A stretch of 62,859 nucleotides of DNA, counting the filler. It is 12 parts of 12 records of this genome, joined end to end, with 100 filler letters (N's around TTAATTAATTAA, not from the genome) between each part and the next. Parts side by side here need not be neighbours in the genome. Positions count along the whole stretch, not along the records: positions 3,327 to 7,705 come from SRR7504441_6220; 11 more parts are not named here. The stretch is one strand, 5' to 3'. The notes beneath the pieces are model-generated. The model was not told the origin of the DNA, did no database searches, and saw nothing but the letters and a program-made list of their open reading frames with translations. Of the stretch, positions 3,227 to 58,553 are shown piece after piece. Positions within the stretch are counted from its first letter, which is position 1, and every line of letters starts with the position of its first letter. A program made the translations under genes and the position numbers.

Positions 3227-3326
3227 NNNNNNNNNNNNNNNNNNNNNNNNNNNNNNNNNNNNNNNNNNNNTTAATTAATTAANNNNNNNNNNNNNNNNNN
3301 NNNNNNNNNNNNNNNNNNNNNNNNNN
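3227..3326. other. Artificial contig spacer (first of 11)
   Basis: N-run + TTAATTAATTAA + N-run, 100 nt. Identical spacers at 7706-7805, 17605-17704, 20825-20924, 27252-27351, 32315-32414, 41601-41700, 44964-45063, 49940-50039, 54339-54438 and 58454-58553. Confidence 0.99.
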
Positions 3327-3334
3327 GTAGTGGA

Positions 3335-4062
3335 TTATAACAAGCGCCATTTGATCTTTGTTTTGATGTCTTCGGGTAGATGCTCCCAGAGCAGTTTGAT
3401 CTGCTTCGCCGGATTGGTCTTGGCCTGGATCTGTCTCGCCGGACTCACGACCCCAAGGCGGCAGCAGTCACCAGCTCGCCGGCCGCCGCAAGCGGTTCAG
3501 TTCCTCCCGCAGTAGCTTGCTCGAGGTCTTTCCACAGCAGCTTGAGCGCCTTAAAACGCCGTTGGATCTTCGCTTGCTCGGCTGGGAGTAGATTGTCCCA
3601 GTCTTGGAGGCCATTCTCCAAGACTGGCACAAAAATGTACGCACACAAAATGCGTATCCCGCCCCCAGGCTTCTTGCAGGCCTGGACGAAGTTGTCGACG
3701 AAGGTGTTGGCGGAGATGACCGCGTTGTCAACAGGGCCCTCCTCGGCGGTCTGGACCTGCCGCGAGCGCCGGGCCTCACGACTCGCCCAGAGCGCGCAGT
3801 CACCAGCTCGAGAGTGGGGATGAGAGCGTGACGTCCGACATCGAGACCTGCCCCGCCGGACTCACGACCCCGAGGCGCCAGCAGTCACCGCTCGGACCCT
3901 GCTTATCGATAAGCAGGTTGTCCTCCGGGACAACCTCGTCCACGTTGGCGATGGATTTGTCGTCGGCCAGGGCCAGGGCGGCGAGGAAGAAAGCAACTGC
4001 GCAGAGGGAGCGGGCCTGCCGGCATGCCGCCTGAGCACCACAAGCGCCAGCCAGCTCACCAT
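3335..4062 (-). CDS. Secreted 184-aa protein of unknown function, 4 introns
   Basis: Removing GT-AG introns 4016-4059, 3848-3888, 3757-3803 and 3431-3471 gives a clean 555-nt frame: MARSLCAVAFFLAALALA (signal peptide) DDKSIANVDEVVPED...IKLLWEHLPEDIKTKIKWRLL*. Confidence 0.8.
3431..3888 (-). repeat. Three related micro-introns (41, 47, 41 nt), introner-like
   Basis: 3431-3471 GTGACTGCTGCCGCCTTGGGGTCGTGAGTCCGGCGAGACAG and 3848-3888 GTGACTGCTGGCGCCTCGGGGTCGTGAGTCCGGCGGGGCAG are 37/41 identical; 3757-3803 shares GTGACTGC...GTCGTGAG..CCGGCG...CAG. Confidence 0.85.
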
Positions 4063-4167
4063 GTGTCGTAGAAGCTTGCGCCAAGGTCAGCCGTGCGTCG
4101 TGCAACCGAGTATCAGGATGACGGGCCTCACCGGTTCAGTTGCCGGTTCAGTCGAACACTCCATCTC

Positions 4168-6173
4168 ATGGGGAACAAACCGGCGAAGCAGCAGCCCGAG
4201 GAGGCGCCCGGCACCGGACTGGGGCGGATCTCGGGGCTCAAGAACCTGGACGTCGCCAAGGTGCTGGCCGAGGCCCCGGAGCCGCCCTCGGTGGCCGGCA
4301 AGCAGCTGGTGTTTACCGGCCGGCTCGGCCTGACTCGGGCCGAGGCCGCCCGGCTGGCCAAGGCCTGTGGGGCCACTGTGGGCGGATCGGTGACCAGCAA
4401 GACGGACGTGATGGTGGCTGGCGCCGACGTGGGCCAGGCCAAGACCCAGGCCGCCGAAGCCAAGGGGATCCCAGTCTGGGACGAAGCCACCTTCATGGTC
4501 GCCGTCCAGCCGGCCGGCCCTGCGCCGGCCGAGAAGCCAAAGCCTGCGCCAACCAAGAAGCCCAAGGCGGCATCAGCTAAAGCGCCCAGCGTGGCACCGG
4601 CCAAGAAGCCCAAGGCGCTGCCGGCCAAGAAGGGGAAACAGACCGCCGCGGAAGTGGGTGGGTCAAGCAAGCGGCCGAGTCCGCAGCCGGAGCCGGGCAA
4701 GGAGTTGAGCAAGCTGTCTGTGCCCAAGCTGCGGGCCGAACTCAAGAGGCTCGGGTCACAGAACATTTTCGGGTCCAAAGCCGAGCTGATAGCACGCATC
4801 CGCCAACTGACAGACGGCGAGGCAGCCGAGCAGTCGGAGTCGGAGTCGGAGTCGGAGGATGAGGTGGGTGCGCCGGGCGAGGCGGCTGCCCCGGCGAGCC
4901 TGGACGGTCTAGTGTTCTGCATCACTGGGCGGCTAGAACGGGTGCGCTCCAAGGTGATACAAGATATCGAGCAAGCCGGGGGTGAGTTCTCAGAGCGATG
5001 CACAAGGAAGGTCGACTACCTTGTGTGCAACAGACCCGGGTCCAAGAAGGCGCTGGCTGCCGCCAAGTACGGCACCAAGGTTGTGAACGAAGTCTGGCTC
5101 CAGAATTGGCTTGAAACAGCCCGGAGTGCAGGCGGCCAGCCAAAGCGCAAGCCGGCCAGCAGTCGGCGGGCGGCGCCCGGGGTGCTTCTGGCCCAGAAGT
5201 TCGAGCCAGACAAGCACGACTGCAGCGGCTGGTGGATGAGTGAGAAACTGGACGGGGTGAGGGCCTTCTGGAACGGAAAAGACTTGCTCTCTCGGGCCGG
5301 GAACAGGTTCGACGCTCCGAGCTGGTTCACAGATCAGCTCCCTGCCGATGGCTCCACCTTGGACGGGGAGCTCTTCACCGGCCGCGGCGAGTTCAACACC
5401 ACTGTGTCGATCGTGCGGAGCGAGAGCGATCCGCGCTGGAAGGACGTGGTCTACCTGGTGTGTTAGCCGCTGGCAGCGCTTAGTTGGGCGGATCAGGTGT
5501 TTGACGCGCCGTCGATGGGTGACCAGCCATTTGAGGATCGATTGGCCGCGCTGAGCGCCCGGTTCGGCTCGGCCGGGGCTGCGCAGGGTGGGCTGGCGCT
5601 GCCGCCCGGCTGAAGGCTGGCAGGAACGGCCAAGCTCTCGCGGTCAGGCTCTCTCAAACGGAGCTGTAGCGGCAGCCTGAAGGGCGCGCATGTGCGTGTG
5701 GTCGTACACGAGCTGGTGGCGGACAACGCTGCGATCGAAGCTGCGCTCGAGCAGATGGACGAAAAAGGAGGGGAAGGGCTGATGCTGCGGGAGCCTGGGA
5801 GCCGCTACAAGCGAGGCAGGCAGAGCTGTCTGCTCAAGGTGCCTGGCTCCGGGGCGGGACGAGTGAGCTGGCCGGGCAGGTGAAGAGTTTTGAAGACTTC
5901 GAGGCCGAGGTGATAGAGGTGCTGGGGGGCGACGGCAAGCACACTGGGCTTATGGGCGCGCTCAAGTGCCAGCTGCCACCGTGCAAGAAGCGCAAGACGT
6001 TCAAAGTAGGCACCGGATTCACCGACCATCAGCGGAGGAACCCGCCGGCTGTTGGCGATATCATAACCATCAAGTGCGCTGAGCTGACGAAGGGCGGGAT
6101 CCCGAGATTCCCGGTGTTTGTTGGGGTGCGGACCGACATGACCAAGGCTCAGTTCGTGAAGCTGGAGGAGTGA
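4168..6173 (+). CDS. ATP-dependent DNA ligase with N-terminal BRCT-SAP-BRCT domains, 3 introns
   Basis: BRCT (VFTGRLGLTRAEA..GATVGGSVTSKTD), SAP (LSKLSVPKLRAELKRLG..GSKAELIARI), second BRCT (FCITGRLERVRS), ligase motifs SEKLDGVRA, LDGEL, VFDAP, EGLMLR, LLKVK and OB fold (VGTGFTD...PRFPVF). Introns 5458-5496, 5588-5623, 5839-5879. Confidence 0.93.
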
Positions 6174-6428
6174 TCATGAGGGGAGGCTCCAAGTCACGAG
6201 CGGCTGTGCGCCAACCTCGATACGAGCTCAGTTTACTCGTAACACACGTTCTTAGTCAGAAGCGGAATCCACAATACAACTTAAATTAGTTGTATTGCCC
6301 GACTTTCTAATAAATGTACCCATGTGTAACTTTGCTGGTCAAAAACGGAACCTGTCTATTATAGGCTTGAGAACAACGTACAGTATGGCAAAATGACACG
6401 CTGTGGAGCTCGGTGAGCACTCCACTCG

Positions 6429-7705
6429 ATGGGAGATGCTACGACCTGGCGAGACAACACCAGCTTCGAGTGGAAGCCGATCTTACAGCAGAAAGAGGAC
6501 GTGAAGTCTGACGGGCTGGCAGCAGGACCGGGGTCCTGGGGCTGGCAGCATGGAGAACTCGGTGTGAAGGATGTGCTGACAGAGACGCCAGCGGTGCATC
6601 TCTGTGCGCGCAGTGTGCCGAATGATTTGACTAGGGCAGAGACGGAGTCGCTACTCGATGAAGTTTTTGCTCGTGAGGCTGAGCGGCTGCTGCCGGAGAG
6701 CCGCTTGTTCGGAAGGGAAGGTCGCTGTCCGCGGCCTGTCTTCCTGATCCATCCTGGATGCATGCCCCCGTGTGTTTACCACGTCCGGGCCCGTACGGGT
6801 ATGCGCGAGCAATCTGCTCAGCTGCTTGGCGAACAGACCCTGGGGGAGGTTCTATCGATGACAGGGTCCAGTGAGGCGTGTGTCAGGCACTTAGTAGACA
6901 GTGCACTTGAGCGCTTGGATTCACAGCATTCATTTGCTGAGGCCAAGTTTGACGATTATTTTGAGGTTTACGCCGAGGACACGGCACGCCGTCAGCTCGC
7001 GGATGTCACTGAGCAGACGCATATCTTAGGCGAGCAGACACCAGCTTTGATTCGTATAACGAGATGATGAAACTCGGTCAAATGTGCAATTTCACCCACG
7101 GAGTGATGCAATCGGAAGTGAGGCTGTTACGTGCAGTGCTCAATGGTAGGTTAGTGACCCATAAGCTCGACGACGGCCCGCATGTTCTTCACAGGATCCT
7201 TGCCCGTGAGTTCGAAAAAGAGGAGCACGCATTGCGCGACGCTAAGCTGCGCCGTGCTGCATACAAGCATGCAGCACGCGGGGAGGAGTGGCCGTCTAGG
7301 GCATTGCATCTCACTTATCTGGTCGGAGGGATGCTGATTATCGTCCTCGCAGCACTGGATGCACAGCTGCAGGGGAACTCATACTCACGGTCTACACTAG
7401 AGCAGGTCCTCAAATACACCCTCGCTATATTGCCCATCATCCTTTCGGCACTCCTTTCTCTGCGAAAGGACCTCAACCATGCTCCAAAGGCGGTTGCTTT
7501 CCAGTTCGGATATGCATTTATTGACTCCCAAATCTGGAGATATTGCACACGCACAGGGGTGTACTCAGACCTGAGTCTTGCGACGAATGACCAAGACACA
7601 CCAACTGCCCGCGCATCCCTCCTTGCCGACCAGCTTGTCGCCATCGCTGAGAAGGTTGTGCCGAACGATGCCTCACCGCCTCGATCGTCAGCTGTGCTGC
7701 CTCTG
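6429..7705 (+). CDS. Membrane protein with SLATT (DUF4231-like) 2TM domain, 3' truncated
   Basis: Two TM helices followed by LPIILSALLSL..DLN..PK...F..A.IDSQIWRYCTRTGVY, resembling SLATT C-terminal motifs. The two ORFs can be joined with three tentative introns. Confidence 0.55.
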
Positions 7706-7805
7706 NNNNNNNNNNNNNNNNNNNNNNNNNNNNNNNNNNNNNNNNNNNNTTAATTAATTAANNNNNNNNNNNNNNNNNNNNNNNNNNNNNNNNNNNNNNN
7801 NNNNN

Positions 7806-11399: not shown

Positions 11400-14300
11400 T
11401 TAAAGTAGGCTGTCAGTCTTTGGTGACGTCGATCGCGAGCCACTCTTTGCTTCATTTCTAACACGCGCCGCTTCTACAGCAGCTTCGGCTTCAGCAAACT
11501 TCATCCTGGTAAACTCGGCTTTGTCGATCACCCCGTCGCTGTTAGTATCCCATTGGTTGAATTGTTTGTCAATTGAAGCTTGTAGCTTGTTTGCTTCGGT
11601 CGCGTTTCCAGTGCCATACAGCAATGCTTCTGCCCTCGCAGCGGCGCTTAGCTTACCTGATGAAGCCGCTGTCCTCTCACCACTCGACCCTAGTACCGCC
11701 CCTGCTCGATCTGCACCCCGTGCCTGTTCGCCCTTCCCAATGTCATGCAAGATCTCGCCAGCCCTCCTCGCGGCACTCCAATCCTTGTCCTGCACACCGT
11801 GATTCTTGTTTCCCCCAAGCTCAGTCTCCAGCTCCTGCAGCTCCTGAGCCTCGGCCTCAGCTTTAGCCTTGGCATTCCTGTCAGCCTGCTTCCTCCGATC
11901 GGCCTCCCACTGTCGGAGGTCGTCCTCCTCGTCTGGCTCATTCGTCCTTGGTGCGCTTGGCGATTTTGACTGGCTGGCTGCTGTTTTTTCATCCTTGTCA
12001 AACAGCCCAAAGGTGAAGGGTGCTTCTGGTTTAGGCTCAGGTTGCGATTTGGGAAGTGTGGGGTCCTGCATCAAACGCCGTTCAGCAGCCCGGCGCTCAT
12101 CGATGCTATTTACAGCCTGCTGAACGGCAGCAATACGGCTCTGCTTTGGCTCTGCAGCCACTACCTCTGATGGCACTGCACCATCACGGAGACTCTGGGC
12201 GACCTTCATAAAGGCATCACAGTGCTGGTAGAATTTGGAGTTCAGTGATGGCAGCTGCTCGTCGAAGAACTCCACGAATTCTTGCATTTCAACTCTGCCA
12301 TCACCACTACGATCCAATTTGGTCATGAGCCGTGCATTCATCTCCTTAGTCCATTCGCCGCTTTTTTGGCCGAGCTTCCGTCGTTGCTGCCCAAGCACAA
12401 GAAGCTCATCAGCGCCAATCGCCCCATCACCATCAATATCGAAAGCCTTGAACACTTTTTTCAGCTCCCTGTGTCGCTCTCCATAGTCGCTGTCAGGCTT
12501 CTTGCGAGGAACCCGTGGTGGAGTTGGTGGAAATTCCCTCGGTGGCATCCTGGAAAACTTCTCTGGTTTGGGGGAGGACTTCATTGACTTGAGCTGCGAA
12601 ACGCGACTTGAAAGCGATGATTCCAGCTCACGTAGTTCGCGGCTCTCCTCTGGAGTCCTGTTCCGTTTCATATAGAGAGAGTCGATCCTTCTGTTCTTCT
12701 GTGCGAGCGACATTGGCTGTGAGCTGTCGTACGTTACTTCAGGTTTGAATGTTCGGGCTGCTGGGGTCGCCTCCGTTGAGCTGATTGGCATATCGGTTGC
12801 ACCCTGCACTGAACGAGCCACAGCAAGGAACTGATCAATGTTGCTGCTAAACTCAAAGTTGTCGCGTGGCAGCAGATCGTCAAAAAAGGTCACAAACTCG
12901 TTCATCTGGATTCGGCCATCACCGTCGCTATCCATCCGGGTCATCATTCTGTTGTTCATTTCATGTGTCCATTCCCCTTGCTTGTGGCCGAGCCGACGTC
13001 GAGCCTGCCCGAGTTTGAGCAGCTCATCGGCCCCGATTGTGCCATCCTTGTTGATATCAAAAGCGTTGAACACATTGCGCAACTTCTCCTGACGCGCAGA
13101 GGAGCCACGCCGAGGCTGCTGATCAAAATGGATTGGACGCTCGACAAGGGGCTTCGGCTTGTAGCCATTAACAAAGTTCTCCATCTCTTTGAACGAAAGC
13201 TGGCCGTCCTGATTGGCATCGATGCGCTTGATGATGGCATACACAGCAGCGCGGGCTTCCGATTCTGAAAGTCGTGCCCTGGGATCTTGCACCATCTTCT
13301 TTGCGATGTCGCGGGCCAGTTGAATGAACTCACGGCCATCAATGAAACCATTTTGATCGGCGTCAAAAGTGTCAAACACCGCTTTCAGGCCACCCTTCTG
13401 GGCAGCCCGGAGTAATTCACGTTTCGCCTGCTCCATGTGCTCTGCTGCTGACTCAGACAGCTGATCTGAGGGTGGATTCACTTCAAGCCGAGCAGCACCA
13501 GTCTCCTCTGGTTGGAAAGCTGGCACATCCTCAGGATTGATCACGGGCCGCCCACCCTTCGCAGTCTGGTCAATGAGATAGTAAACGTCCTCCACGACAG
13601 TAGGGGGAAGCAGTGCACAAAAGGGCTCCTTGATCACAAGTCGGCTGAAGTCACTCTTGCACAGTCCACCCAGGACACCACGGTCGCTCATCAACATCAC
13701 GCTAGTGACAAACACATCCAAATCTTGGATTGCATCTCCAAAGAAATTTGCCAGGTACGTCTCGAGTTTTCGCTCATCTATTATAGCCTCAGAGCCTGCA
13801 ATCTCGGTAAACAGCTTCTCAATCGCACTGATTATACGAAGAACCACTTCCTGTGGGCTACCAGAAGCGGTGGGCTTGGCCCCTGTCTCTCTGCGTGGAT
13901 GCATTCTGTGGCTTGGGATGCCAGATTTGACGAAAGCTGACAATTCGCGTCGCACTGTCTGTGGAAGCATCGAGTTCCACGGCTTTTTTGTAATCATTCG
14001 CACAAATGCTGCAAACCCGACGCCTCCAGCCCCAATCTTGTCAAATTGCTTGACACAGTCTGATGCCTGCTCATGGACCTCCGCCTCCTTTGCTTTTGGT
14101 ATTGGAGTATTGAGTTGGTTCCACACATCTTTCACCATTGTTGTCAGTTGGTCTGCGGATAAGACCAGCGTGTTGTCTGTATCATATTTGCGGAAAAGCT
14201 CCTCGGCAGCTTTGTAGATCAACTGCATCGATCCAGCAGCTGTGTTCCAGCTGCTTATGATCTGGGCTATGTTGGTGCGAGAGCGCTCCTCTGCTCCACC

Positions 14301-17300
14301 AGCCTCCAAGTTTTGCTTACCAGGGACTGGAATCTGGGCATTTATGTAGTGCCAAGTGGAGTGATCCTTCTTGGGCACCTCCGATCCGGATGGCACTTGA
14401 GGGGCTGCATTCTTCTGGTCTGAGGTGCGTTTGCACCAGGCCTCGAATTCACTCCACCCAAGCTGCTTGTCCTCTGTCTGGTGCAACGTATCGACCAGCT
14501 TATCGGCCTCTGCTTGCCGGGTCTGAGCGTCCTCGGCACCAGGGTACAGCCTCTCGAGCACAAACTCGGCCACACTGCGCAGCTCGCGCTCTGGCAGCTT
14601 GCCGCTCATGAGGTTGTCCAGGCTGTCCCAGAGCGGCTTGGCCTCAGCCAGCAGCTGCCCCAGCGAACTGTCGATCAGTCCAACTTGCAACTTGGGGACC
14701 TGCACCCTGCATCAGGCCGCACAGGTACAAGCCCCAGGCGTACCGTGCTCGGACTTGCACGGACCGGCGCCGCCTCGGATAAATTCAAATCGTCGTGCTG
14801 GAGCGGGCCCTGTTGCGAGGTGAGCTCACGCCTGGCGGCTGGGAGCACCGGTGAAGGGTGCCGCTCCGGGGAGCCAGGCTGGGGTGATACGCGCTCCCTC
14901 GGGGTGATGGGGAGGCCCTTGGTGGGCGACACAACCCCAAGCTGGGCCTGCAGGTCTGCAGGGAGCAGCAGGTGCCACGGATGCTTTGTCACCTGCCGCA
15001 GCAGCTGAGCGCACACCCCAGCCGGAGCGGACCATCCTGAGGAATTGCATGAAGGTGACGAACTGCTCGCCAGTGCCGTAGGTGGCAAGCGCCAGCTCGA
15101 TTTCCTGCTGGAGCATCTGCTCGTCGTACTCGCTCACCCCTCTGATCTGGAGCACCTGCCCGTGGCTCAGCCGCTCCAAAGCCCGGGCCCGACCTGCTTA
15201 GCCAGGAACCGGATCTCGGCCAGTTCCAGCACGTCGTTCTGCGTCTTGTTGGCGGCGTCGAAGATTCCGCGAGCAGCATTCAGCACAGTGTTGGCTCTGG
15301 ATCCGGCGGGCATCATGGCTCTCGGCGAGCGACCTGGTGTGGTGACAAACAGGGCGCGTGGCGAGGTCTTGGGCTGTTGAATCGGTAGTCTGAGCAGACT
15401 GCAGCTCCGGGCCACTCCGCTGAACTGGACCATCGCGTTTTCAAACAGCTCGGGCTCGGGCGGCAGGAGCGGCTCCATGTGGCTCGTGAACTCCTGCACA
15501 TCGATCGAGCCGTCCTTATTCACATCCATCAGCTGCATCAGCTTTTCGTTCAGCTGCTGGGTCCACTCACCGGCCTTCTGGCCCAGCGCGCGCCGAGCCT
15601 TGCCCAGCTCGAGCAGCTCCTTCAGTTCGACTCGGCCAGATCGGTCCAGGTCAAACATGGCGAACACCGCACCCAGCTTGGCCCGCCGCGACTCCAGGTC
15701 CCTGCTCACCGGCTGTTGGGACACCGCTGGGGGCTCCGGTGCTGGCTCGGCCGCGGCCTGCTTTTGCTGGCGCGACTGCTCGAACTTTGCGATCGAGCCG
15801 GTGGTGCGCTCGAACCAGCCGGTGAACTCCTCAAAGTCCATCACGCCGTCGTCGTTTTTGTCGAGCCGGAGCATCAGCTTGTCCGCCTCGACCTGCTTCT
15901 GCTGCTCGCTCATCGGCTGGCCGTCCGGGTGGAAGCTGGCGAAGACCCAGGCTGCCAGCTCGAGCAGCTCGTTGGCCTCGAGCGTGCCGTTCAGGTTGAC
16001 GTCCAGCGAATTGAACTTCTTCTCAGCCGCTGTGAGCACAGCGGCCGGGTCGCTGCTCGGCTCCATGGTTTGCACTCCGCTGTGAGGGGTGCGCGACTCG
16101 AGCCCAGGAGCAGCACCACTTGCACTGCTCGAGCCTGGCGATGAAAAACTCAGCAACGGTTTTGCAGAGACACCTGCAGGCGCAAGATCGGGCCACCCAT
16201 GCGCAAACAGAGCCCACCAACCACGCCTTCAAACGCTTTGATGCGCGATTCAATACGATCCGTCAATTCCGAGTCCAACTCTTGCTCTGCATCAAAGACC
16301 ATTTCTTCCAAGGCAGCCAGCCGGCTCGAAGTTGCAGGATAAAACTCCTCCAATGAGTTTATCCTCAAATGCAAAGGATCTGTGATCTCACTCACATCTA
16401 CTTGTTTCCCCGCCGCTGATTCTCCATCTAATGTGTACGTGTTCTCCTTGGGAGCTGCACCACCTCCCTCCAGTACAGCCACCCTTTGGAGCAGCTCAGC
16501 AGTTGTGTCATTGCACTGGCTCATGCGTGTCTGGATTGGTGTCACACTGCTGTCCAAATGCTTGACTGCACGTCTCAACTCTGCCAGCAACTTCTTATCG
16601 TCACCCTTCATTTTCTTTTCGGCCGTTTCTTCTTGCACAGATGCTTCATCTCCTTTCATCGTGCGCTGCACGCAGCTGCTCCACAAGTTGGCCACCCCAA
16701 GCTTTTTTATTGTTCGCTCTGCGCGACCCATTCTCGCAATCAAAGGGTCCAGCATCTGCTGCATTGTCAGCATTGCCTGTCCTAGTGCCCGTGCAATCGT
16801 GTCCTCCAACTCTTGAGGCCCAATCCTATGGCTCTGGCGTGAAATGCCACGTGACGACCCAGTAGGCGTCGCCTGTCTGCTCAGCCCAGCAGGAGTCGGC
16901 TGTCTGGCCGAGTGAGGCTCCTCTATTTCAAACTCGTCTTCTCCAGTCGCAATCAGCCGCCAGTGCTCCGCGGCCTCCTTCCAGCTCTGAGCTTCGAGCT
17001 GAGACTCCTGGGCCGCCGCCTGCCACGAGCTCGGCCTCGGCCCGCCCCTGGTACCGGCCGTGCGAGCCCTGGATACCGGCGCCTCCGGAATTGAGGCTCG
17101 CGATGAGAGCGCAGCAAACGGGGTAATCTCGCGAGAGATTTGCCCACGAAGTTCAGCGACCTTGCTCTCGAGCAGCAGCCTTTCTTGCTGTTCGAGCTCC
17201 GACAAATCTTGGCCGCTGTTAACCAAATGCTCCAACTGAGCCGCCGCCAGCGCCAGCTCGCTCTGCTTGGACTTTGCTGTCTCCATGGCGCGCTCGGCCT

Positions 17301-17604: not shown

Positions 17605-17704
17605 NNNNNNNNNNNNNNNNNNNNNNNNNNNNNNNNNNNNNNNNNNNNTTAATTAATTAANNNNNNNNNNNNNNNNNNNNNNNNNNNNNNNNNNNNNNNN
17701 NNNN

Positions 17705-19393: not shown

Positions 19394-20539
19394 ATGGCTG
19401 GTGGCGCCGGGCGCCTCGGCGGTCCACTGGCGCGCCTGTTCCCCCTTCTCGGCGGTCTGTTGCTCCTGCCGGCGGCGGTCCGGGCGAACTGCGCCTGCTC
19501 CCCCTTCTCGGGCAACATAAACGCTGGCGACTGCTGCGACGGCGGCAAGAACGACACCTGCGGCAGCTGGTTCCACCGCGCCACCTGCAACGGCAGCTCG
19601 CCAGTCTGCTGCACCTCGGACTTTGGCTCGGCCTGCTGCCCCGCCGGCTCCTCATGCTCCCCAGGCTGCCGCAACTCGCTCGAGGGTGGCTGCGGCTGCG
19701 TGCCGGCGCCCGATTCGCTCTCGGGAGTCGGTTTCAACATGACCGCGGCCGTGCACGTGCTCGGTCTGAACGCGGCCACCCAGTGCGCGCCGAGCCAGGT
19801 GCAGGCCTGGAATTGCGTGGCCTGCGCCAAGAACTACCGGCTCGAAAACCTGAACGTGACCCAAAACGCGGGGCACATGGCGTTCACGGCCTGGGACGCG
19901 GACAACGGCAAGATCCAGGTGGTGCTCCGCGGGTCGCTGTCGATCAAAGACTGGCTGAGTGACGCCGACTTCCCGAAGACAGCTGCGTATGAAGAGCTCG
20001 GGTGCGTCGGGTGCGGGGTGCATGAGGGCCTGTACAAGGCGTACAAGGCGCTGCAGCCCGCGGTCGAGGAAGGAGTGGAGACGCTGCTCGGACTCCACCC
20101 AGGCGCCTCGATCTCACTCACGGGCCACTCGCTGGGTGCGGCGATGGCAGCGCATGCTGCGATTGCCTTCGCGATGGTCCGTGGGTGGAAGCTTGACCAC
20201 ACGGTGTACACCTTCGGACAGCCCCGTGTAGGCGATGCCCAGTTTGCGGCGTGGTTTTCACCCAAGTTCCCTGGGTGGTTGCGGTCGGTGCACTGGAATG
20301 ATCCGGTTCCGCACCTGCCCCCCACTTCACTAGGAAGCTACCACTACCGGCACGTGGGCCGGGAGCTGTGGTGGACAGAGGACTCCAAGGCGGAGATGGT
20401 GTGCGACGGGACCGGTGAGGACCCAAACTGCTCGGCATCGATCATGGCCGCGCTCAACCCGCTTGATCATTGGTATTACCTCGGATACGATGTGTGCAAT
20501 TGCGTGCCGTTCAAAAAGGGCAACTCACGAGTGATCTAG
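19394..20539 (+). CDS. Secreted class 3 lipase with Cys-rich N-terminal module
   Basis: Signal peptide, Cys-rich segment, VVLRGS, VHEG, TGHSLG, YTFGQPRVGD, DPVPHLPP, Y.H.G.E, C-terminal DH. Confidence 0.93.
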   Translation: MAGGAGRLGGPLARLFPLLGGLLLLPAAVRANCACSPFSGNINAGDCCDGGKNDTCGSWFHRATCNGSSPVCCTSDFGSACCPAGSSCSPGCRNSLEGGCGCVPAPDSLSGVGFNMTAAVHVLGLNAATQCAPSQVQAWNCVACAKNYRLENLNVTQNAGHMAFTAWDADNGKIQVVLRGSLSIKDWLSDADFPKTAAYEELGCVGCGVHEGLYKAYKALQPAVEEGVETLLGLHPGASISLTGHSLGAAMAAHAAIAFAMVRGWKLDHTVYTFGQPRVGDAQFAAWFSPKFPGWLRSVHWNDPVPHLPPTSLGSYHYRHVGRELWWTEDSKAEMVCDGTGEDPNCSASIMAALNPLDHWYYLGYDVCNCVPFKKGNSRVI

Positions 20540-20824: not shown

Positions 20825-20925
20825 NNNNNNNNNNNNNNNNNNNNNNNNNNNNNNNNNNNNNNNNNNNNTTAATTAATTAANNNNNNNNNNNNNNNNNNNN
20901 NNNNNNNNNNNNNNNNNNNNNNNNC

Positions 20926-25384: not shown

Positions 25385-26995
25385 CTACTCAGCTGTCTCC
25401 TCGGCCGCCGCTAGCTTCTCGAGTTTGGCTTGGTTGCTCAGCTCCTTGGCGTGTCGCCGTTTATACGCTTTCTGCGCCAGTAGCACAGCGCCCACCTGGG
25501 TTGGCTCGCACGGCCAGCATAGCGACGGGTTGCACCATCCCTATTGTGTCGCCCATCTTGGAAGGAACGATGTAATGCGAGATCTCCGCACTGCCCGCCC
25601 GCTCACCTCGTGTGCTGCACTGCTGTGCTAACATATACAGCAGTATTATGCACTGTGCTAGTATAATTATACAGCAGTACTGTGCTAGTATATACAGCAG
25701 TATTATGCAGTACCTTGTCAGCTCCGGGCGCTCGACATAATCTTGGAGCAGCACCTGCCCTTATCTTAGAACAATTCCATACTACAGAATACAGAGACTA
25801 TACTATATACTATATACAGCAGTAGACCTGCACGCGGGCCCTTATCTTGTGGAACAAGACCTCTCGCTTCATCACCCCACCTGCCGGACCCGCTCCGACC
25901 ACTAGCACTGCCCAAGACCCTATATACTGGTACACAATACTGTAGTACTAGACCGCACCGGACAGCACAATCCTCTCGGGGGAGACTAGTAGGACCATAT
26001 TCGCACACAGCGTCGCCAGGTAATGTGCAGTCGCGTCCCACACCTCGGCCCCGGCTCACCAACAGGCCCCAACCGACCGCACCGGGTGGTCGTCTGGAAG
26101 ATCCGCCAGTCCCGACGGCGGCACCCCGGCTCTCAACGCTATCGCGCCCGCACAGGCCATTGATTCGGTATCTATCCCGCTGAATGGGGCGGCCGGATTC
26201 GTGGTCGGGGCGGTGTCGCCTGGGAAGGGCTGGACGCACCTGGGCCGGGTCATTAACGGAAATTAACGGCATGTCACAGGTGCCCGCCCTCGGGGTGAAG
26301 CAGCCCATGGACCGTCCGAGAGTTGACCACTAGTCCGACCCCGATCCCGGTGCCAACAGTCACGTACACGCAGGACGTGTCGCCCGGACGCCGGAAATAC
26401 TCAAACTGGCCGATCCAGTCAGAAGGTAACGGAAATCCGTTACCTCGGCCATCGCCGGCGCGTTCACGTCGGTGTCGAACTCGAAAGGCAGATGCTCCAC
26501 CCCTGCCAACGGTAACGGACATCTCCGGCGAGTAACGGACCTTCCCGGAGCGGCGTGAGGATGTCGGTGTTGCGCCATGCCTGCCCCCCGGGGCTGATGT
26601 CCGTTAGGGCCGCAACGGTCACCGCTTTGGGCGTGTTCGTTATGTAGCCGTAACGGGGCGAGGTCTTGTGCAGCTCGACGGGGCCGAACGAGGCCACTCC
26701 GAGCGCGTCAAAGCTCCTGGACCAACGGTAACGGACACCAACGGTAACGGCACCGGGCGTCCAGCCACTGCTTGACCTTGGCCAGCGTCTCGTCCGGGCT
26801 GGTTGTGGGGAAGACGGCGGACTCCACGATGTTAGTGGGGTGCGACACGGCCAGCGCCACCCGCCAGGTGGTGCCGCCCGCCTCCACACCGGCGAACACC
26901 GGCTCCTCGTACCGCCGCACCGGGTCGCACCAGATCACCCGCCCGCCCAGCCCCGAGCCCGCCGCAGCAGCGCAGCCGATCAGTCCTCGCCGCAT
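25385..26995 (-). CDS. ROK-family sugar kinase (fructokinase-like), 10 introns
   Basis: GVEAGGT, FPTTSPDET, GVASFGP, YGYITNTPK, DTDVNAPA, YVTVGTGIG, GLLHPEGGH, SPERIVLSGGV. Introns 26717-26753, 26581-26622, 26503-26540, 26406-26443, 26240-26277, 26044-26082, 25881-25958, 25755-25827, 25591-25713, 25496-25535. Confidence 0.93.
25591..25827 (-). repeat. AT-rich intronic minisatellite shared by adjacent introns
   Basis: TACTGCTGTATA...AGCACAG unit three times in intron 25591-25713; TACTGCTGTATATA also opens intron 25755-25827. Confidence 0.8.
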
Positions 26996-27351
26996 CGCCC
27001 AAAGCCACAATCAGCCGTTATCAGCGAGGTTGGCCTCGAAGCCACGCTCGAAGCTCAACTCCACGCAATATGGCAGTGCGCGCGGCCTGCCCGGTCTGGC
27101 CGGCCGATGAGTACACGTAGCGCTCCACGTGGCTCTTTTGCGGCCCCGGCATGCTCGTGGCCCGCCCCTCTGCCCTGATCTCTGAGGCTTCAAGAAAATC
27201 GCGAAAGCCGGGGGCCAGATTAACTGCAACTAGACGACCGAGCAGGACACGNNNNNNNNNNNNNNNNNNNNNNNNNNNNNNNNNNNNNNNNNNNNTTAAT
27301 TAATTAANNNNNNNNNNNNNNNNNNNNNNNNNNNNNNNNNNNNNNNNNNNN

Positions 27352-29812: not shown

Positions 29813-32314
29813 CTATAATTGTCCACTCGCTCGTGCTTCGCTATTCAACTCGTTCGCTTGAAGGTCGTCTAGCTCCTCCCCGGCTTGATCATGATTGTCG
29901 TTAATATTGGTCGACTGCGTCAACTCGTTCAAAATTGGAGTCCTTCGTAGCCGCGATGCGCGTATTGACTTACTGGGCTTGCGCGAGCCTGTCCTTCGCA
30001 GAGTGCTTCGCAGCCCGTCACCGCGCGAGCCTGTTCTTCGCAGCCCGTCATTGGACGCGGATCCCGAGATCTCGTCATAGGCCACAGCATCAATGATCAA
30101 AGCAATGATTCGCTTACCATGATCTGGCACACAATTTGTATCAGTAAACGCGCAAGGTTATCGGGCGGTACCTTTTGCATATGTCAACTGACCCTCACAC
30201 CAGGCTGAACACAAGAATTCTCGAGTAATGAGAAGCAAGCAAATCTGGGCCTCGTCGCAACGGTTGAACCATTTCGGATCTCCAGCCTCAAATACAATCG
30301 TCGACGCTGTAGCGTGCTCATAGATTGCAGCTTCAAGCTTGGTGGCTACTTCCATGTCGTCGTGCACAAATATGGCGGTTGGAATTTGCTCGGATGGGTT
30401 CACACCAACACTCCGTGGACTGAACCATGACCGCGTTGCACCCATGGACGTCAGTGCAATCGTCAGCTCTTGCATGTTGTTACTCTCGTCACTATGGAAC
30501 GGCCTCATGTCACTCGGTACCTTGAGCACATCGTGCGATCCAATCACAGAAGCGTACTTGGGCAGACGGCGCATGGTGAGTGCATAGTCACTCCGGTCAG
30601 TCGAATTCTGAAACTGGATGGCTGCCTTGAGGGCGGCAAGGGCTGTCGGGTCTGTATCAAAGTCTGCAACACAGTCAAGCCCTCAGTCGCAGCAGCCTCT
30701 ATTGGCAGCAGACCTTGATTTGGAGGGACACGGTTATGCCGGTTCAGAACACTGCACAGAAAAGGCAGCCAAGGGTACTCGGCTACGTGCTCCGCTCGCT
30801 TGTTCATCGCATCTTTGAACGCCTGGCAATCGCACAACACAGGTACAATCGCCATGTCCCGCTGGCATGCCCATAACACGCCCGCAAAGCAGGCCTCGCT
30901 GTGCAAGAACTTGTCGGTGAGCACAGGTATCAGAACCCCGGCTTCTGCCCAAGAGTCCTTGACGCTTTGGCCATAGCAAGACAGCACCCCGTGTTGATTC
31001 AGCGCAGTCGACAAGGCCAAGGCAAACTCTTCGTGTTCGGAGTCGTAAAGCAGCACTCCCTGCATGTTGCTACCCTGCTGAAGGAACGGCAACAATTGGT
31101 TCACCAACTCAGCCAAGTGATCAAAGAAGGCGCAAGTTTTGCAGGGCGGCTGTGGTGACAGGTCGCCAATGTCGATTTCATGCGCATCAGTGGTATCGTC
31201 GGCAGTTTTGGTAGAAGCTTTTGCCAGGGCCGAAGGCACAATCTGCTTGAAATACCGGCTGTATGTGGCTGCCCTGGTCTGTGACTGTGCATCTGTCTCG
31301 GCCATTGCTGATGCCCAGCCGTCGGGGTCCGCCTGATAGCAGACCGCTGACAATCCGACACTTTCAGCCCTGGTGGCCTCCTCGTAACAAGCATTTGAAC
31401 CCAAATAATTGGACGAGAGCACCGGAAGAAAGACCTTGGCCGACTCAAGCCGGTCAAAGTACCAAGCTCTCCAATCGTCCCCCGACGGCACCTGCGTCCC
31501 ATCGGCTGTGCTGATTCCGAGCACGTTTAGAGCCTGCCTCAGCCGCTTCATCTGGGTGACCTGCGTGCTTTGATAGCTTATAATCACATCAAGGTGGCCA
31601 TCAACACCCGGCAGCGCAGGCAGCTCGATTTCGCGCTCCCAGAAGAACGGATGCGCCAGCACCTCCTCCATGGTCTGGACCCGTGCGTTGGGGTTACCCT
31701 GCAGGCAGCGGGCGAGCAGATCTGTCGCCACCAGCCGCCGGGCGTCTGAACAGTCTGGCAGCACCGGGCTCAGCTGATCGTCTGACAGATCCTGCCAGGT
31801 GGCCAGCAGCATGCAGCCGTTGGCCGAGGCTAGCTTGCCTTCGACCAGCGAGTGCTGGAATAAGGGCAACCCAGTGACCAGCGAGTAGAGTATTACCCCA
31901 AACGCCCAGATGTCCACTGTGGGCTGGGCGGTGATGGTCGGCAGCACCTTCGGAGTGTTCGGACCACCTCCGGACTGGCAGGCTCTGAACGGCAACAACT
32001 GCACACAGCGCTCTCAAGCCGGAGCCCATGCAGGGCACCTCAATCATGTACTCGGGTGGCATGTAAGCCTCCGTGAATCGGCCGGGCCGGAGCTGCTCGC
32101 CTATGGGGACCGACGCATCCAGGTCTATCAGCAGTAGCCGGCCCTCGGTCGAGATTATGTTAAAGTGCTTCAGGTCACCTGCCCGAGCTCACCGCCCGCA
32201 CCCTTTGCTGCAGACCGTGCACTATCCCGTGCTGGTGCAGGTGGTGGACCGCCTTGGCGATCTCCAGTGCGAACTGCCGGATCTTCCGCAGGTCCTTGCC
32301 CGCAAAGTCCTGCT
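29813..32314 (-). CDS. Protein kinase fused to three TIR-like domains, 5' truncated, 4 introns
   Basis: HGDLK, IDLDAS, YMPPE, DIWAFG; then DVIISYQ...FLPVLSSNYLGSNACYEE, LIPVLTDKFLHSEAC, LLLITREFLCSAWCEGQL. Introns of 37, 40, 50 and 48 nt restore one frame. Confidence 0.85.
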
Positions 32315-32414
32315 NNNNNNNNNNNNNNNNNNNNNNNNNNNNNNNNNNNNNNNNNNNNTTAATTAATTAANNNNNNNNNNNNNNNNNNNNNNNNNNNNNN
32401 NNNNNNNNNNNNNN

Positions 32415-41221: not shown

Positions 41222-41702
41222 ATTACTTGTACTTTTTTTAGCACTGTTGCCAATCGAACCGGGTGTCGGCAGTCGCGTTCTCAGAGCTAGCTTCCCTAGG
41301 ATGAGAAGGTAACCTTCCTACCTGTAACCTGTGGTGCCTTGGAAGTATGCGTACCTTAGAGCACCGCAAAGTGAGAAAGGTTTTATTGTATAAATGGTTT
41401 CTAGATCGCTAAGGCGAACTAAATCCAGCTTCAGTTGATAAAAGTGTAGCTACTGTGAGCTACCTGTGAGCACACTCGTACACCGGTCGGTCGACACTGG
41501 CTAGGCGTAAGCTAGGCGCTTGATCCGCCAGTACTTAATTAATTGTTACAAGTCTTTATGTGCGTACACATTTCTGGGCCGGGTGTGTGCTTTTTGGTGC
41601 NNNNNNNNNNNNNNNNNNNNNNNNNNNNNNNNNNNNNNNNNNNNTTAATTAATTAANNNNNNNNNNNNNNNNNNNNNNNNNNNNNNNNNNNNNNNNNNNN
41701 AG

Positions 41703-44963: not shown

Positions 44964-45063
44964 NNNNNNNNNNNNNNNNNNNNNNNNNNNNNNNNNNNNN
45001 NNNNNNNTTAATTAATTAANNNNNNNNNNNNNNNNNNNNNNNNNNNNNNNNNNNNNNNNNNNN

Positions 45064-49939: not shown

Positions 49940-50039
49940 NNNNNNNNNNNNNNNNNNNNNNNNNNNNNNNNNNNNNNNNNNNNTTAATTAATTAANNNNN
50001 NNNNNNNNNNNNNNNNNNNNNNNNNNNNNNNNNNNNNNN

Positions 50040-54338: not shown

Positions 54339-54438
54339 NNNNNNNNNNNNNNNNNNNNNNNNNNNNNNNNNNNNNNNNNNNNTTAATTAATTAANNNNNN
54401 NNNNNNNNNNNNNNNNNNNNNNNNNNNNNNNNNNNNNN

Positions 54439-57400
54439 GTTTTGCAAAACGGTGCACTTGATTCACCTCTCGTTCAGCTATCTGTCATCCCCACCCGTTT
54501 AACAGATGTTAGCGCCAACAGCAGTTCTGCTTCTGCTTTGGATGACATGGATCGACGATACCGGGCATGGTCTGCACACCTTTCTATCCACGCCAGTGAA
54601 GCCCAAGAAGCTAGTATCCATCTTTCAGATGGAGACAGCACTTGGTCTCTCAGTAACAGTGGCGCTCTGCAAATCGGGAAGGGACCGGATGTGGATTCGG
54701 CAATCTCACTTGAGACGCAAGAGTGCTCCATTCAAAGCACCCTGTTCCCTGCATTTGGTTTGAATTCTGATGATGCTAGTGGCGAACAGGCAGTAAGTGC
54801 ATCAGACTGCTTCAGCTCAACTCTCACCGTGCCTGGCGAGCAGACAAGCCTGCACTTTGCCCACGGCCATGAAAACATATTCTCCATCTCACAAGATTTT
54901 AATGAACTAAAACTTGCGTCTGCTGATGACTATTCTTTGCACGTTCGCGATACTCCCGATCAATTGGATATAGCACTGGTTTCAACAATGGAGGCGCATC
55001 TTGTGGTAAGTGCAAATCAAAGTTCGACAGTCTCGCTTCATGCATCAGAAGCTATGTATCAGCTGTCTCATGATTCGTCTTCACAAGCCCTCAGAATACA
55101 CTCATCTCTTGGTGATACTCCCTTTGTCCTCTCACAAGGCACAGACAACAGTGATACATCAGCAGAAATTACCTCCGGCCTCACCATAGAGGCAGCTCCT
55201 GGCGCTGAATCTCAGATTGTTCTAAGCAGAGACCAATTCAACAGCATGTGGAAAATACGTGGCAGGCAAGACACGTTGCATTTTGCCAATGGAGATTCAA
55301 GCGCACCGCTCATCTGGCATTCACCGCTAACTGGCAATCGCACTGAGCTCGTCATCAGCTCGACTGGGCACGCTGCAGCCTTCCTTGGTGGCTCTGAAAG
55401 TAGTGTGACACTTGGAAAACGTGATCAATTCACCCTCAAGAGCGCTGATGGCAAAATGGCATTAGCCCGAAATAAGATTCCCCTCATGCATGTGGATACA
55501 GACCTGGTTAGCGACACACGGTCGCTTGCGGTGGTTTCTCCCAAGGATAACGATCCTGTTTCGCTTGTGTTGGTCTCCGGGAGTTCAAGCTCTAGCATCA
55601 GAGCTCGGGATGCTTCGCAGCTGCAGATTGGCCAGGGATTAAAGCTACACTCAGAACCGGTCGCTGGACAGAGTCAAAAAGATGCCTGGGATACGATCCT
55701 CTCTGTAGAGTCATCGCCTTCTGGACGACCGAGGCTTGAATTGGTCAGTGGTGCAGGCGGCTCGACCTTAGAATTGGACAGTGTCAAGCACACACTACAG
55801 GTGGGTCCAGCAGGGGCTGCCGACACACTTACCATAGGAGGTCTGAATCGTCAGAAGTCTGAATCGTCAGACAATGTGCGGCTGGCAAGTCAAGACACAG
55901 GAGCAAATGTAATTCTCCAGGCTGCAGATCGCGCCACTGTGAACATTGGCAAGCATATGCGACTCCAAGTAGATGCAGATGGTTTGAATATGATTTCGGA
56001 GGGACAAATACACCTGAAACCTAGAGGCCTTGACCTCAAAGTGGAGCACCTAGACCTTTCGGGAATGCAGTTGCAGCGTCATGGCATTGCAAGCACATTG
56101 TCAGATTATACCGCTTGGAGAGCAGGTGGTGGTTTCGACTTTGCGACTGGTGGCGTTCTTGACACTTCCAGTCGCCGCCTTCGGGTGAGCAGTGTCACCA
56201 AGACGCTACTGGAGGCTGACCAGCTCCGTTTTCTTGTTGGGTTCAACATACCAATCAGCCTGGAAGGACCCATGCAACTAGTGTCAAATTCACCGCAGAT
56301 CCGAGATCAAGTGTTGTCATCTGGACCAATTACAGCAAAGAGCGACCAAATCCTGGTACGTGCTCGCGACCAGCTTGAGTTGCACGCTGCAACTGATCTA
56401 ATGATCCAAGGAACCTCCCTGTCCCTCCATCCTGGTTTGAACGCAAATGTAGCAATCACGGGTAGACTCCTTGTTGGAGACAGGGAGAGCGGAGTGAACT
56501 TCGAGGGTTCTCGCATCCTGTCCGAGGATCGCCTCCACGACTTTGAGTTTCGGTCTGCCGGTGGTCTGCACTTTGGGACCGGTAAAGCGACCTTGCAAGC
56601 AAAGCTCACAGGCAGTGAGCTCCAAGTCAGTGGGGAGCCTCGATTTTCTGCAGGGCAACTAGCTGACCTGAGTGCAGGCCAGATAGAAATTGATGCTGAG
56701 ATTGATACCGGCCCAATACGTTTCGCTGGAGAAAAGGTCACATTGAATGACCATCACAGTACAAAGGCGATGCATCTTACAGGAGGGAATCGCCTCGCAC
56801 TCAAAAGCACAGCAGATTCCTTTATAAATGCAAATGCTGCACTTTTGTCTGGTCAAAGCGAATCCAGCATAGCAGCGCCAACTATCCGTGTTCGAGCTCG
56901 ATCTCACAATTCCCTCATCAAAATTCCTTCTTTACTTCGAAATGCTGACAGTCGTGTGGAGGTCGATGGTACAAGTGTGCAATCGGCTGAAAAGGCTCAT
57001 CTGAGCTCAGATCGGGGATTTATGATCCGTTCAGAGGCAGCAGTTAACATTTTCAGCACAGAATTGTCGACACGTGCCCAAGATATAAGATTGAAAGCAA
57101 CTGCAATCAAGTCATCTACTGGTATTAACCAAGACCTCGCTGCTGTGCTGCAAGGAGGCCACGTGCGAGCTGATGATGTAATCATGGATGGCTCGGGTCT
57201 ACATCTAAACAGCCCAAAAGGCGCTTCTTTCACATCAAATCATGACATTACAGCAAGAGCAGAGACTGTGCATTACGATACAGATGAACTGGTGTTGGAG
57301 AGTGGTGAGCACATGTCAATTGCTGCAGCCAGCCTCAAGCTGTCTGCGAATGGCATTGAACTCCAAAGCTCTGAGGGTATAACCATTGATAGCATCGTCA

Positions 57401-58453
57401 TGGACGGAAGCAGGCTTGAAACAGAAACAATCTCACACAAGAGAGTCTCCATCAAATCTGAGAACGAGGCCGCAGTTGCAAGCAGCAAGGACTTGCAAGT
57501 GAGCGCTGGCAATCTACTGGTCGAGAGCAGCGACATCAACGTTCGTGCCCCAATGGTGACGACAGAACACTATGTTTTAATCAAGGAAGCACTCTTCTTG
57601 GATGGTCGAACAGTCGAGACGTTGGACAAAATGAAGGGGCTGGACATTCGAGGAGGCAGCACTTTACTTTCTGGACACCACCTCGGAGGTTCAGCGCAAA
57701 CAATCGAAGCGGTTGCCAACGAACGCATCACACTAGCTGCCCACGGCCTCTCTTCAGAAAGTGGTCAGCTCGAGGTATTGACAAGCGGCGGCGCCCTGAA
57801 AGTAGATGGTAGTCTGTTTCAAGGTTCGCAAGTCAAGCAAGTGAACCGTATCGCTGCCTCTAACCTTGATATTAAGTCTTCAGAGGCAGCAATCCTGTCC
57901 TCAGACAGCATGTTCGTTCAATCCTCAAGGGTAGTAATTGAAGCAGAGAATGGCGTTGAGCTCAAGTCGACGCGTGTGAAACTGACCGATTCAGGTGTAG
58001 CTGTATCTGGACATCTGCTGTTAGATGCCAACACACTGTCCTCACAGACTGGACTGAATCTCGATAGCACCCATCTACAGCTCATGGCACCAGAAATACA
58101 AATGCATGCGCCCTTAAACCTGAAAAGCGACAGAAGGACTCTGCTCTCAAGTCCATCATGGGAACTGATCAGTTCTAAAGAGAGTATCATCCTGCAGAGT
58201 GGGCCTGGGCCAACTCTCTTAGATGGCAACACCAAAGTGCAAGGAGGACGAATAATTGGCGGGACAGAGGTAGCGCCATGGCGACTAAAATCCAAAAGTG
58301 GAGTCACTATTACAGCTCCTGAGATGATAAAGCTTGATGGTCAGAGCATCCTTGTGGGTGATATGACCTCGAATTTAGAACTAGCGTCAAGAGGACGTAT
58401 TCTAATTGAGGGCGACATGACCCACTTTGCATTGGGAGGCGGGAGCCTGAACG
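54439..58453 (+). CDS. Large beta-strand-rich repetitive protein, open at both ends (>1330 aa)
   Basis: Uninterrupted 4-kb frame filling the contig; Ser/Gly/Leu/Ile-rich short alternating strands; only 2 Cys; lower GC and no introns. Confidence 0.8.
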
Positions 58454-58553
58454 NNNNNNNNNNNNNNNNNNNNNNNNNNNNNNNNNNNNNNNNNNNNTTA
58501 ATTAATTAANNNNNNNNNNNNNNNNNNNNNNNNNNNNNNNNNNNNNNNNNNNN

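Follow-up and report, generated by a model that had tools for sequence, protein, structure and literature searches.

Three look-alike introns of 41-47 nucleotides in one gene of a marine eukaryote: a candidate same-gene intron duplication

Three short introns of a small gene from a marine eukaryote, here called A, B and C, are best explained from their letters as paralogous introns, making up three of the four introns proposed for that gene. We think it somewhat better than an even chance that copies of a pre-existing intron, and of the intron only, arose at new positions within the same gene, that is, by same-gene intron duplication. Intron C is best explained as the outcome of an older event and the A/B pair as that of a younger one. 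Two observations define the case: near-identical introns lie in one gene, and the exon flanks of A and B are not duplicated, which places the pair in the transposition subtype. We infer intron gain from paralogy alone, as the gene is an orphan with no homologues and no orthologue showing an intron-free state.

The gene and its tiny introns

The gene lies on the minus strand at 3335-4062 of the analysed stretch of DNA (62.8 kb in total, hereafter the window), and the intron cluster sits near the start of one of its contigs, 3327-7705. The proposed start codon (4060..4062, minus strand), which is the coding part of exon 1, would be followed directly by a proposed intron 1 of 44 nt (4016..4059, minus strand; GT..AG). 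No in-frame ATG is found in exon 2's own frame, and the model with intron 1 puts an ATG in frame with a signal-peptide-like N-terminus. Downstream, and all on the minus strand, come exon 2 (3889..4015, 127 nt), intron B (3848..3888, 41 nt, GT..AG, phase 1), exon 3 (3804..3847, 44 nt), intron C (3757..3803, 47 nt, GT..AG, phase 0), exon 4 (P0001; 3472..3756, 285 nt), intron A (3431..3471, 41 nt, GT..AG, phase 0) and exon 5. The last of these (3335..3430, minus strand) includes the stop codon at 3335-3337 and ends 8 nt from the contig end. For the three similar introns, the coordinates, strand, GT..AG ends, lengths and phases proposed in a first-pass annotation of this DNA all hold.

Excising A, B, C and intron 1 yields one 555-nt ORF of 184 codons, with a GC content by codon position of 0.65/0.37/0.72. 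It stays open only if exactly these segments are removed, read-through of any one of them leading to a stop. Eight coding stretches of the window with Pfam or homology support served to train a codon model and themselves score 0.22-0.55 bit per codon; the spliced ORF reaches 0.316 bit per codon in frame vs -0.34 and -0.46 out of frame. Taken individually, exons 2, 4 and 5 strongly prefer the proposed frames by codon log-likelihood (+14.9 vs -20.4 and -25.7 in the other frames for exon 2; +33.4 vs -23.6 and -40.9 for exon 4). In exon 3, the proposed frame is the best one but weakly so (+0.75 vs -1.4 and -13.3), and the exon is required for the ORF to be open. Plus-strand ORFs across the region have negative codon scores. 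A single 132-nt intron running from the donor of B to the acceptor of C was considered and rejected: by hand reading, the frame then shifts into a stop.

Judging by their sequence, A, B and C are most likely true spliceosomal introns of the U2 type: they have GT..AG ends, and their removal restores the coding frame. A GTG 5' end and a CAG 3' end are common to all four introns of the gene and to two introns of a neighbouring ligase gene. In each of these six, an NTNAG motif, putatively the branch region, occurs 13-19 nt before the 3' end.

The ligase gene (4171-6170, plus strand) encodes a DNA ligase with BRCT-like matches, the Pfam domains being those of its homologues. It is divergent from the focal gene, with start codons 108 nt apart. 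Among named sequences, its closest matches come from oomycetes (Pythium insidiosum, with 53-54% identity across 24-26% of the query). An intron of 39 nt (5458..5496, plus strand), which contains stop codons, is skipped by the tblastn alignment to oomycete ligases, and at another of 41 nt (5839..5879, plus strand) the frame passes from 1 to 3 exactly across the intron in 5/5 homologue alignments. A probable third intron of 36 nt (~5588-5623, plus strand) is placed by reading only. Since the 39- and 41-nt introns are fixed by homology, the host does use introns of about 40 nt; together with these, the focal introns span 39-47 nt, a host-typical length. Identity of the 41-nt ligase intron to A, B and C is at background level (63-69%), and only the splice signals are common to it and them. 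ORF-joining scans for tiny introns across the window gave no length enrichment, real and chance introns being indistinguishable by such scans in GC-rich DNA.

No homologue of exon 4 (95 residues) was found among 1.84 billion representative proteins, and the focal protein has no match in Pfam or PDB. The gene is best explained, on its predicted structure, as a small lineage-specific orphan in a marine eukaryote with introns of ~36-47 nt. Its 184-residue product is probably secreted. We also observe that the C-terminal half of the protein is made of repeats with a W-x-x-L ... K-I motif.

Likeness of the introns and their flanks

Introns A and B are identical at 37/41 positions, confirming the value first given (40/45 when extended by a few bases); they are thus ~10% apart. 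In a self-BLAST of the 62.8-kb window they form the sole off-diagonal pair at E<=1e-3 (E 5.6e-10). A 35-nt degenerate pattern, allowing <=3 mismatches, finds the A and B sites only, with 0.00 expected from 100 shuffles.

Intron C had been annotated as a diverged third member, and several shared blocks bear this out. An 8-mer at its 5' end, GTGACTGC, is common to A and B, and its donor-junction string of 15 nt is the same as that of A. The 11-mer GTCGTGAGKCC occurs three times in the window, each time within A, B or C, where 0.09 occurrences are expected. Local alignment scores of A-C and B-C are higher than those of 300/300 shuffles. The relatedness of C rests on these blocks and not on overall identity, because its gapped global identity to A and B is 71-76% and the unrelated tiny introns of the locus already reach 56-70%. 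Judged by the blocks, C is genuinely related to A and B, at a greater divergence. At the two positions that differ between A and B and for which C is informative, B has the state of C, which does not fix the direction of copying. Intron 1, for its part, is unrelated in sequence to A, B and C (alignment p 0.08-0.44).

The exons around A and B do not share this likeness. The intron alignment scores 62 vs a null maximum of 23, whereas the 90-nt flanks in the exons match at chance level (upstream p 0.75, downstream p 0.05), as do longer flanks under permissive scoring (p 0.37 and 0.75). Apart from ~6 upstream exon bases, the likeness ends at the intron borders. The exon context is therefore unrelated, as first claimed, which excludes a recent exon-plus-intron duplication for A-B and indicates intron-only copying within the gene.

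Some likeness is nevertheless seen at the junctions that pure reverse splicing does not predict. A CGAGC(T)G exon motif stands immediately before the donor in A, B and C. The junctions of A and C, moreover, have 7 identical bases upstream and 7/9 downstream, giving EL|xQ in the protein. These shared bases suggest target preference, microhomology or slight copying of the flanks. The first-pass view that exon duplication could explain the EL|xQ junctions of A and C, and not B, agrees with the present tests.

Intron A shows a further feature at its ends: its last 13 nt are a near-repeat of the 12 bases of exon that precede its own donor. The exact part is an 8-nt direct repeat, CCGGCGAG, whose exon copy lies at 3475..3482 (minus strand), 3 nt upstream of the donor of A, and whose partner lies at 3435-3442 (minus strand), within the 3' end of the intron. 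Compared with coding 12-mers, the repeat resembling a target-site duplication (TSD) has p ~0.005 in A, 0.05 in B and 0.42 in C (uncorrected, 12 tests). A TSD reading of B and C was rejected as not significant; the absence of TSDs claimed earlier is thus right in part, copy A being a possible exception. The claimed absence of terminal inverted repeats (TIRs) holds for A, B and C, which also form no stable hairpin (fold z-scores +1.03, +0.36 and -0.79).

A near-copy (14/16) of the 3' end of A plus the first 3 exon bases is present at 3398..3413 (minus strand), in exon 5, 30 nt downstream. By our own estimate its significance is borderline; it could be an in-frame alternative acceptor, with its AG ending at 3401 and 10 codons skipped, or a partial copy. 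In the ligase gene, the 39-nt intron and the exon downstream of it begin with similar stretches of 12 bases (5458-5508, plus strand; p 0.012 uncorrected). Two of the 12 flank tests thus have p<=0.012, those of copy A and of this ligase intron, a hint that flank-repeat duplications or insertions may create introns generally here.

Same-gene copying and competing explanations

Two routes could underlie a same-gene duplication. In the one we prefer, an excised intron would reverse-splice into its own transcript, and reverse transcription and recombination would next return the intron copy to the gene. This route accounts for the restriction to one gene, the exact boundaries, the change of phase and the absent TIRs, and it is what textbooks propose for cases of this kind. 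Nearly as likely would be a DNA-level route, by which a templated copy from ~400 bp away is inserted during break repair. Templated insertion would account better than reverse splicing for the CGAGC motif common to the copies and for the direct repeat of A, and under it selection would retain only the copies that include a complete intron. Intron A itself may stem from an insertion or short duplication, in which case the right-hand repeat would have supplied its 3' splice site. It is a candidate founder, as its 8-nt direct repeat is of the kind left by such events.

A genome-wide family of very short introners, i.e. mobile intron-generating elements that would have struck this gene three times, is an unlikely source. 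It would fit introns that are nearly identical, yet differ in phase and have unrelated flanks. The insert of A would carry the 5' splice site, the 3' site lying in the 8-nt TSD-like repeat, an architecture similar to that of Chrysochromulina in Gozashti et al. (PMC9860276). According to that 2022 study (PMC9860276), the median lengths of introner families run from 30 to 654 nt, and a family numbers between 5 and >2,000 copies, placed in unrelated genes; introners are found in Micromonas, Aureococcus, fungi and many marine protists, with enrichment in aquatic and marine organisms. The premise of the first-pass annotation that introners are mostly longer than 41 nt is thus weaker than stated. 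Like introners, A, B and C resemble each other in sequence but not in placement, have a marine host and fall within this length range, and copy A possibly has a TSD-derived 3' splice site, as introners do.

The number and placement of the copies tell against such a family, as does their lack of TIRs and of a stable fold. Were insertion dispersed, three members within a single 0.73-kb gene and none across the remaining ~62 kb would not be expected; the pattern indicates a local process. Pattern search, blastn-short (the search for copies recommended at first pass, here run on the window), self-BLAST and an nhmmer profile all found 0 further copies in the 62.8-kb window. The profile, built from A, B and C, recovered the three members and gave its next match at E=3; weak profile matches at 26328-26363 and 19636-19677 were inspected and are not family members. 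Where introner families are recognised by at least 5 copies in unrelated genes, the 62.8-kb window holds 3 copies in 1 gene.

A scan of JGI metagenomes with a 21-nt pattern of the 3' half (two R positions) gave one locus (L001), which we rejected as an intron copy; by our own reading, it is a chance match within a bacterial ABC-ATPase-like reading frame. An IMG/VR scan with a pattern of 5' and 3' blocks had 0 matches. An introner family is therefore not supported by tests on 62.8 kb of genome and exact-pattern scans, although this is the only part of the genome sampled, which leaves such a family some room. The pipeline of Gozashti et al. (PMC9860276) discards introns whose host proteins are similar, i.e. 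paralogues. Of the proposed micro-introner spreading by local copying, intron-to-intron copying or reverse splicing fits, and the self-copying family remains unsupported.

Improbable, too, is a tandem duplication of an exon-plus-intron module, after which the exons diverged and the likeness of the introns persisted or was restored by gene conversion. Module duplication has shaped the focal gene, as the internal protein repeats and the comparison of exon 5 with exon 4 indicate: exon 5 DNA (3338-3430) resembles an internal part of exon 4 (3554-3602) at 33/48 positions, above 500/500 shuffles, with a weak counterpart at protein level (p 0.022). The alike junctions of A and C point the same way, and half of the fungal same-gene duplications are described as segmental (PMC3609843). 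Yet A and B are 90% identical next to random 90-nt flanks, and exons, neutral or selected, cannot outpace the divergence of a 41-nt intron so far. It is unlikely that a conversion tract would stop precisely at the two splice sites, and the exon 4/5 repeat units do not each bear an intron at the equivalent place, one unit alone having one.

We hold it decidedly unlikely that the 41-nt unit is a still-active minimal mobile intron, composed of an insert of ~28 nt and a target duplication of ~12 nt, with more copies elsewhere in the genome. The insert would supply the donor and branch signals and the target duplication the acceptor, as copy A suggests. If true, it would be among the shortest introners known, and intron gain would be directly observable with ~40-nt introns.

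Very improbable, finally, is the reading that the segments are not introns, the frame being a chance or decayed one and the repeats a short non-coding repeat or an assembly artefact: it would suit an orphan gene at the extreme end of a short contig, with no RNA contig on it in run X5 and no help from simple ORF-joining scans, but it conflicts with the codon statistics on both strands, with a frame kept only by removing exactly these segments, with splice- and branch-like motifs and lengths that match the homology-supported ligase introns, and with the recurrence of part of the region in an independent DNA metagenome run.

Known intron copying and the source of the DNA

The closest precedent for same-gene intron duplication comes from fungi. 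Clustering of introns there gave 82 same-gene-duplication introns in 11 of 24 species, of ordinary length and stability (van der Burgt et al. 2012, as summarised by Collemare et al. 2013; PMC3609843). According to this summary, half of them have duplicated exon flanks; for the other half, transposition inside one and the same transcript or a transfer from paralogue to paralogue is put forward. As with A-B, the near-identical introns are confined to one gene and a subclass lacks duplicated flanks; length and folding energy likewise resemble those of ordinary introns (PMC3609843). Unlike the fungal cases, the focal introns are only 41-47 nt long, count three members in one gene and belong to a marine protist.

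Yenerall & Zhou (2012) list 14 unambiguous intron-transposition events, from Mycosphaerella and Oikopleura; the process is reverse splicing of an intron into 'its own mRNA', which that review describes as never shown in vivo (PMC3443670). As in intron transposition, the focal copies have their own donor, branch and acceptor, occupy new positions in any phase and lack TIRs. Intron transposition does not, however, predict the CGAGC motif or the 8-nt repeat at A. In Oikopleura, many look-alike introns reportedly lie within the same gene, as Denoeud et al. are said to have noted in 2010.

Tandem duplication of an exonic segment, also treated in that review (PMC3443670), recalls intron A, whose 3' end likewise repeats the exon just upstream of the donor. 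Unlike what such a duplication would give, no likeness to the downstream exon is seen in the 5' part of the intron (p 0.87), and B and C carry the 3' end of A and not copies of their own exons.

Against this background, the copying of A, B and C would look like a rare but known way of intron gain. New introns traceable to a source intron are scarce, as the 14 events of the 2012 review attest (PMC3443670). The locus offers three related introns near the minimum size for the host spliceosome, in two phases; the youngest pair has unrelated flanks and one copy shows a possible insertion scar. Combined with the genome and transcriptome of the organism, it could help to separate RNA-mediated from DNA-mediated intron copying. 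Its value is moderate, as it is a single locus, within an orphan gene, and the assembly is fragmentary.

The source is a eukaryote from seawater. Between 5 and 10% of the sampled words of contig 3327-7705 were found in 6 public runs, all marine or aquatic metagenomes, one of them RNA. Contigs from four of those runs (X5, X1, X2 and X3) cover parts of the contig at 93-100% identity, and no joints were reported in this comparison. Positions 3479-4002 are uncovered by the contigs of these four runs, which are thus uninformative on splicing or presence/absence polymorphism.

One contig of a DNA metagenome (X2 record 4) aligns with 3366-3478, differing at 8 positions, and spans the 3' junction of intron A, so that intron A exists in the DNA of a related population. 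Before 3366, this contig continues for >250 nt unlike the window. Either the relative has a different C-terminus or 3' end, or window 3327-3365 is non-collinear with it.

In the RNA run, X5, a marine metatranscriptome, no contigs lie on 3335-4062. Two X5 contigs are 100% identical to 6495-6818, overlapping an open frame at 6417-7067 (plus strand) that has no Pfam match; these matches speak for presence in the RNA library only.

The window as a whole is made of 12 short contigs (~3-10 kb each), and those side by side need not adjoin in the genome. They are joined by 11 linkers of 100 nt, each consisting of 44 N, a 12-nt all-frame stop string and 44 N (3227-3326, 7706-7805, 17605-17704, 20825-20924, 27252-27351, 32315-32414, 41601-41700, 44964-45063, 49940-50039, 54339-54438 and 58454-58553). 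Rfam and tRNA scans of the window had 0 matches. An HRDC protein has 6 matches and a pyruvate kinase 17, those named for the kinase being bacterial; neither these searches nor the protein Atlas pointed to a taxon for the source. The pyruvate kinase homologues map onto a single exon, so that no further introns come from that gene. Other ORFs include one of 1338 residues with no Pfam match (54439-58453, plus strand), one of 1103 residues full of EF-hands (11400-14711, minus strand) and one with a kinase C-lobe followed by a TIR domain (30544-32013, minus strand).
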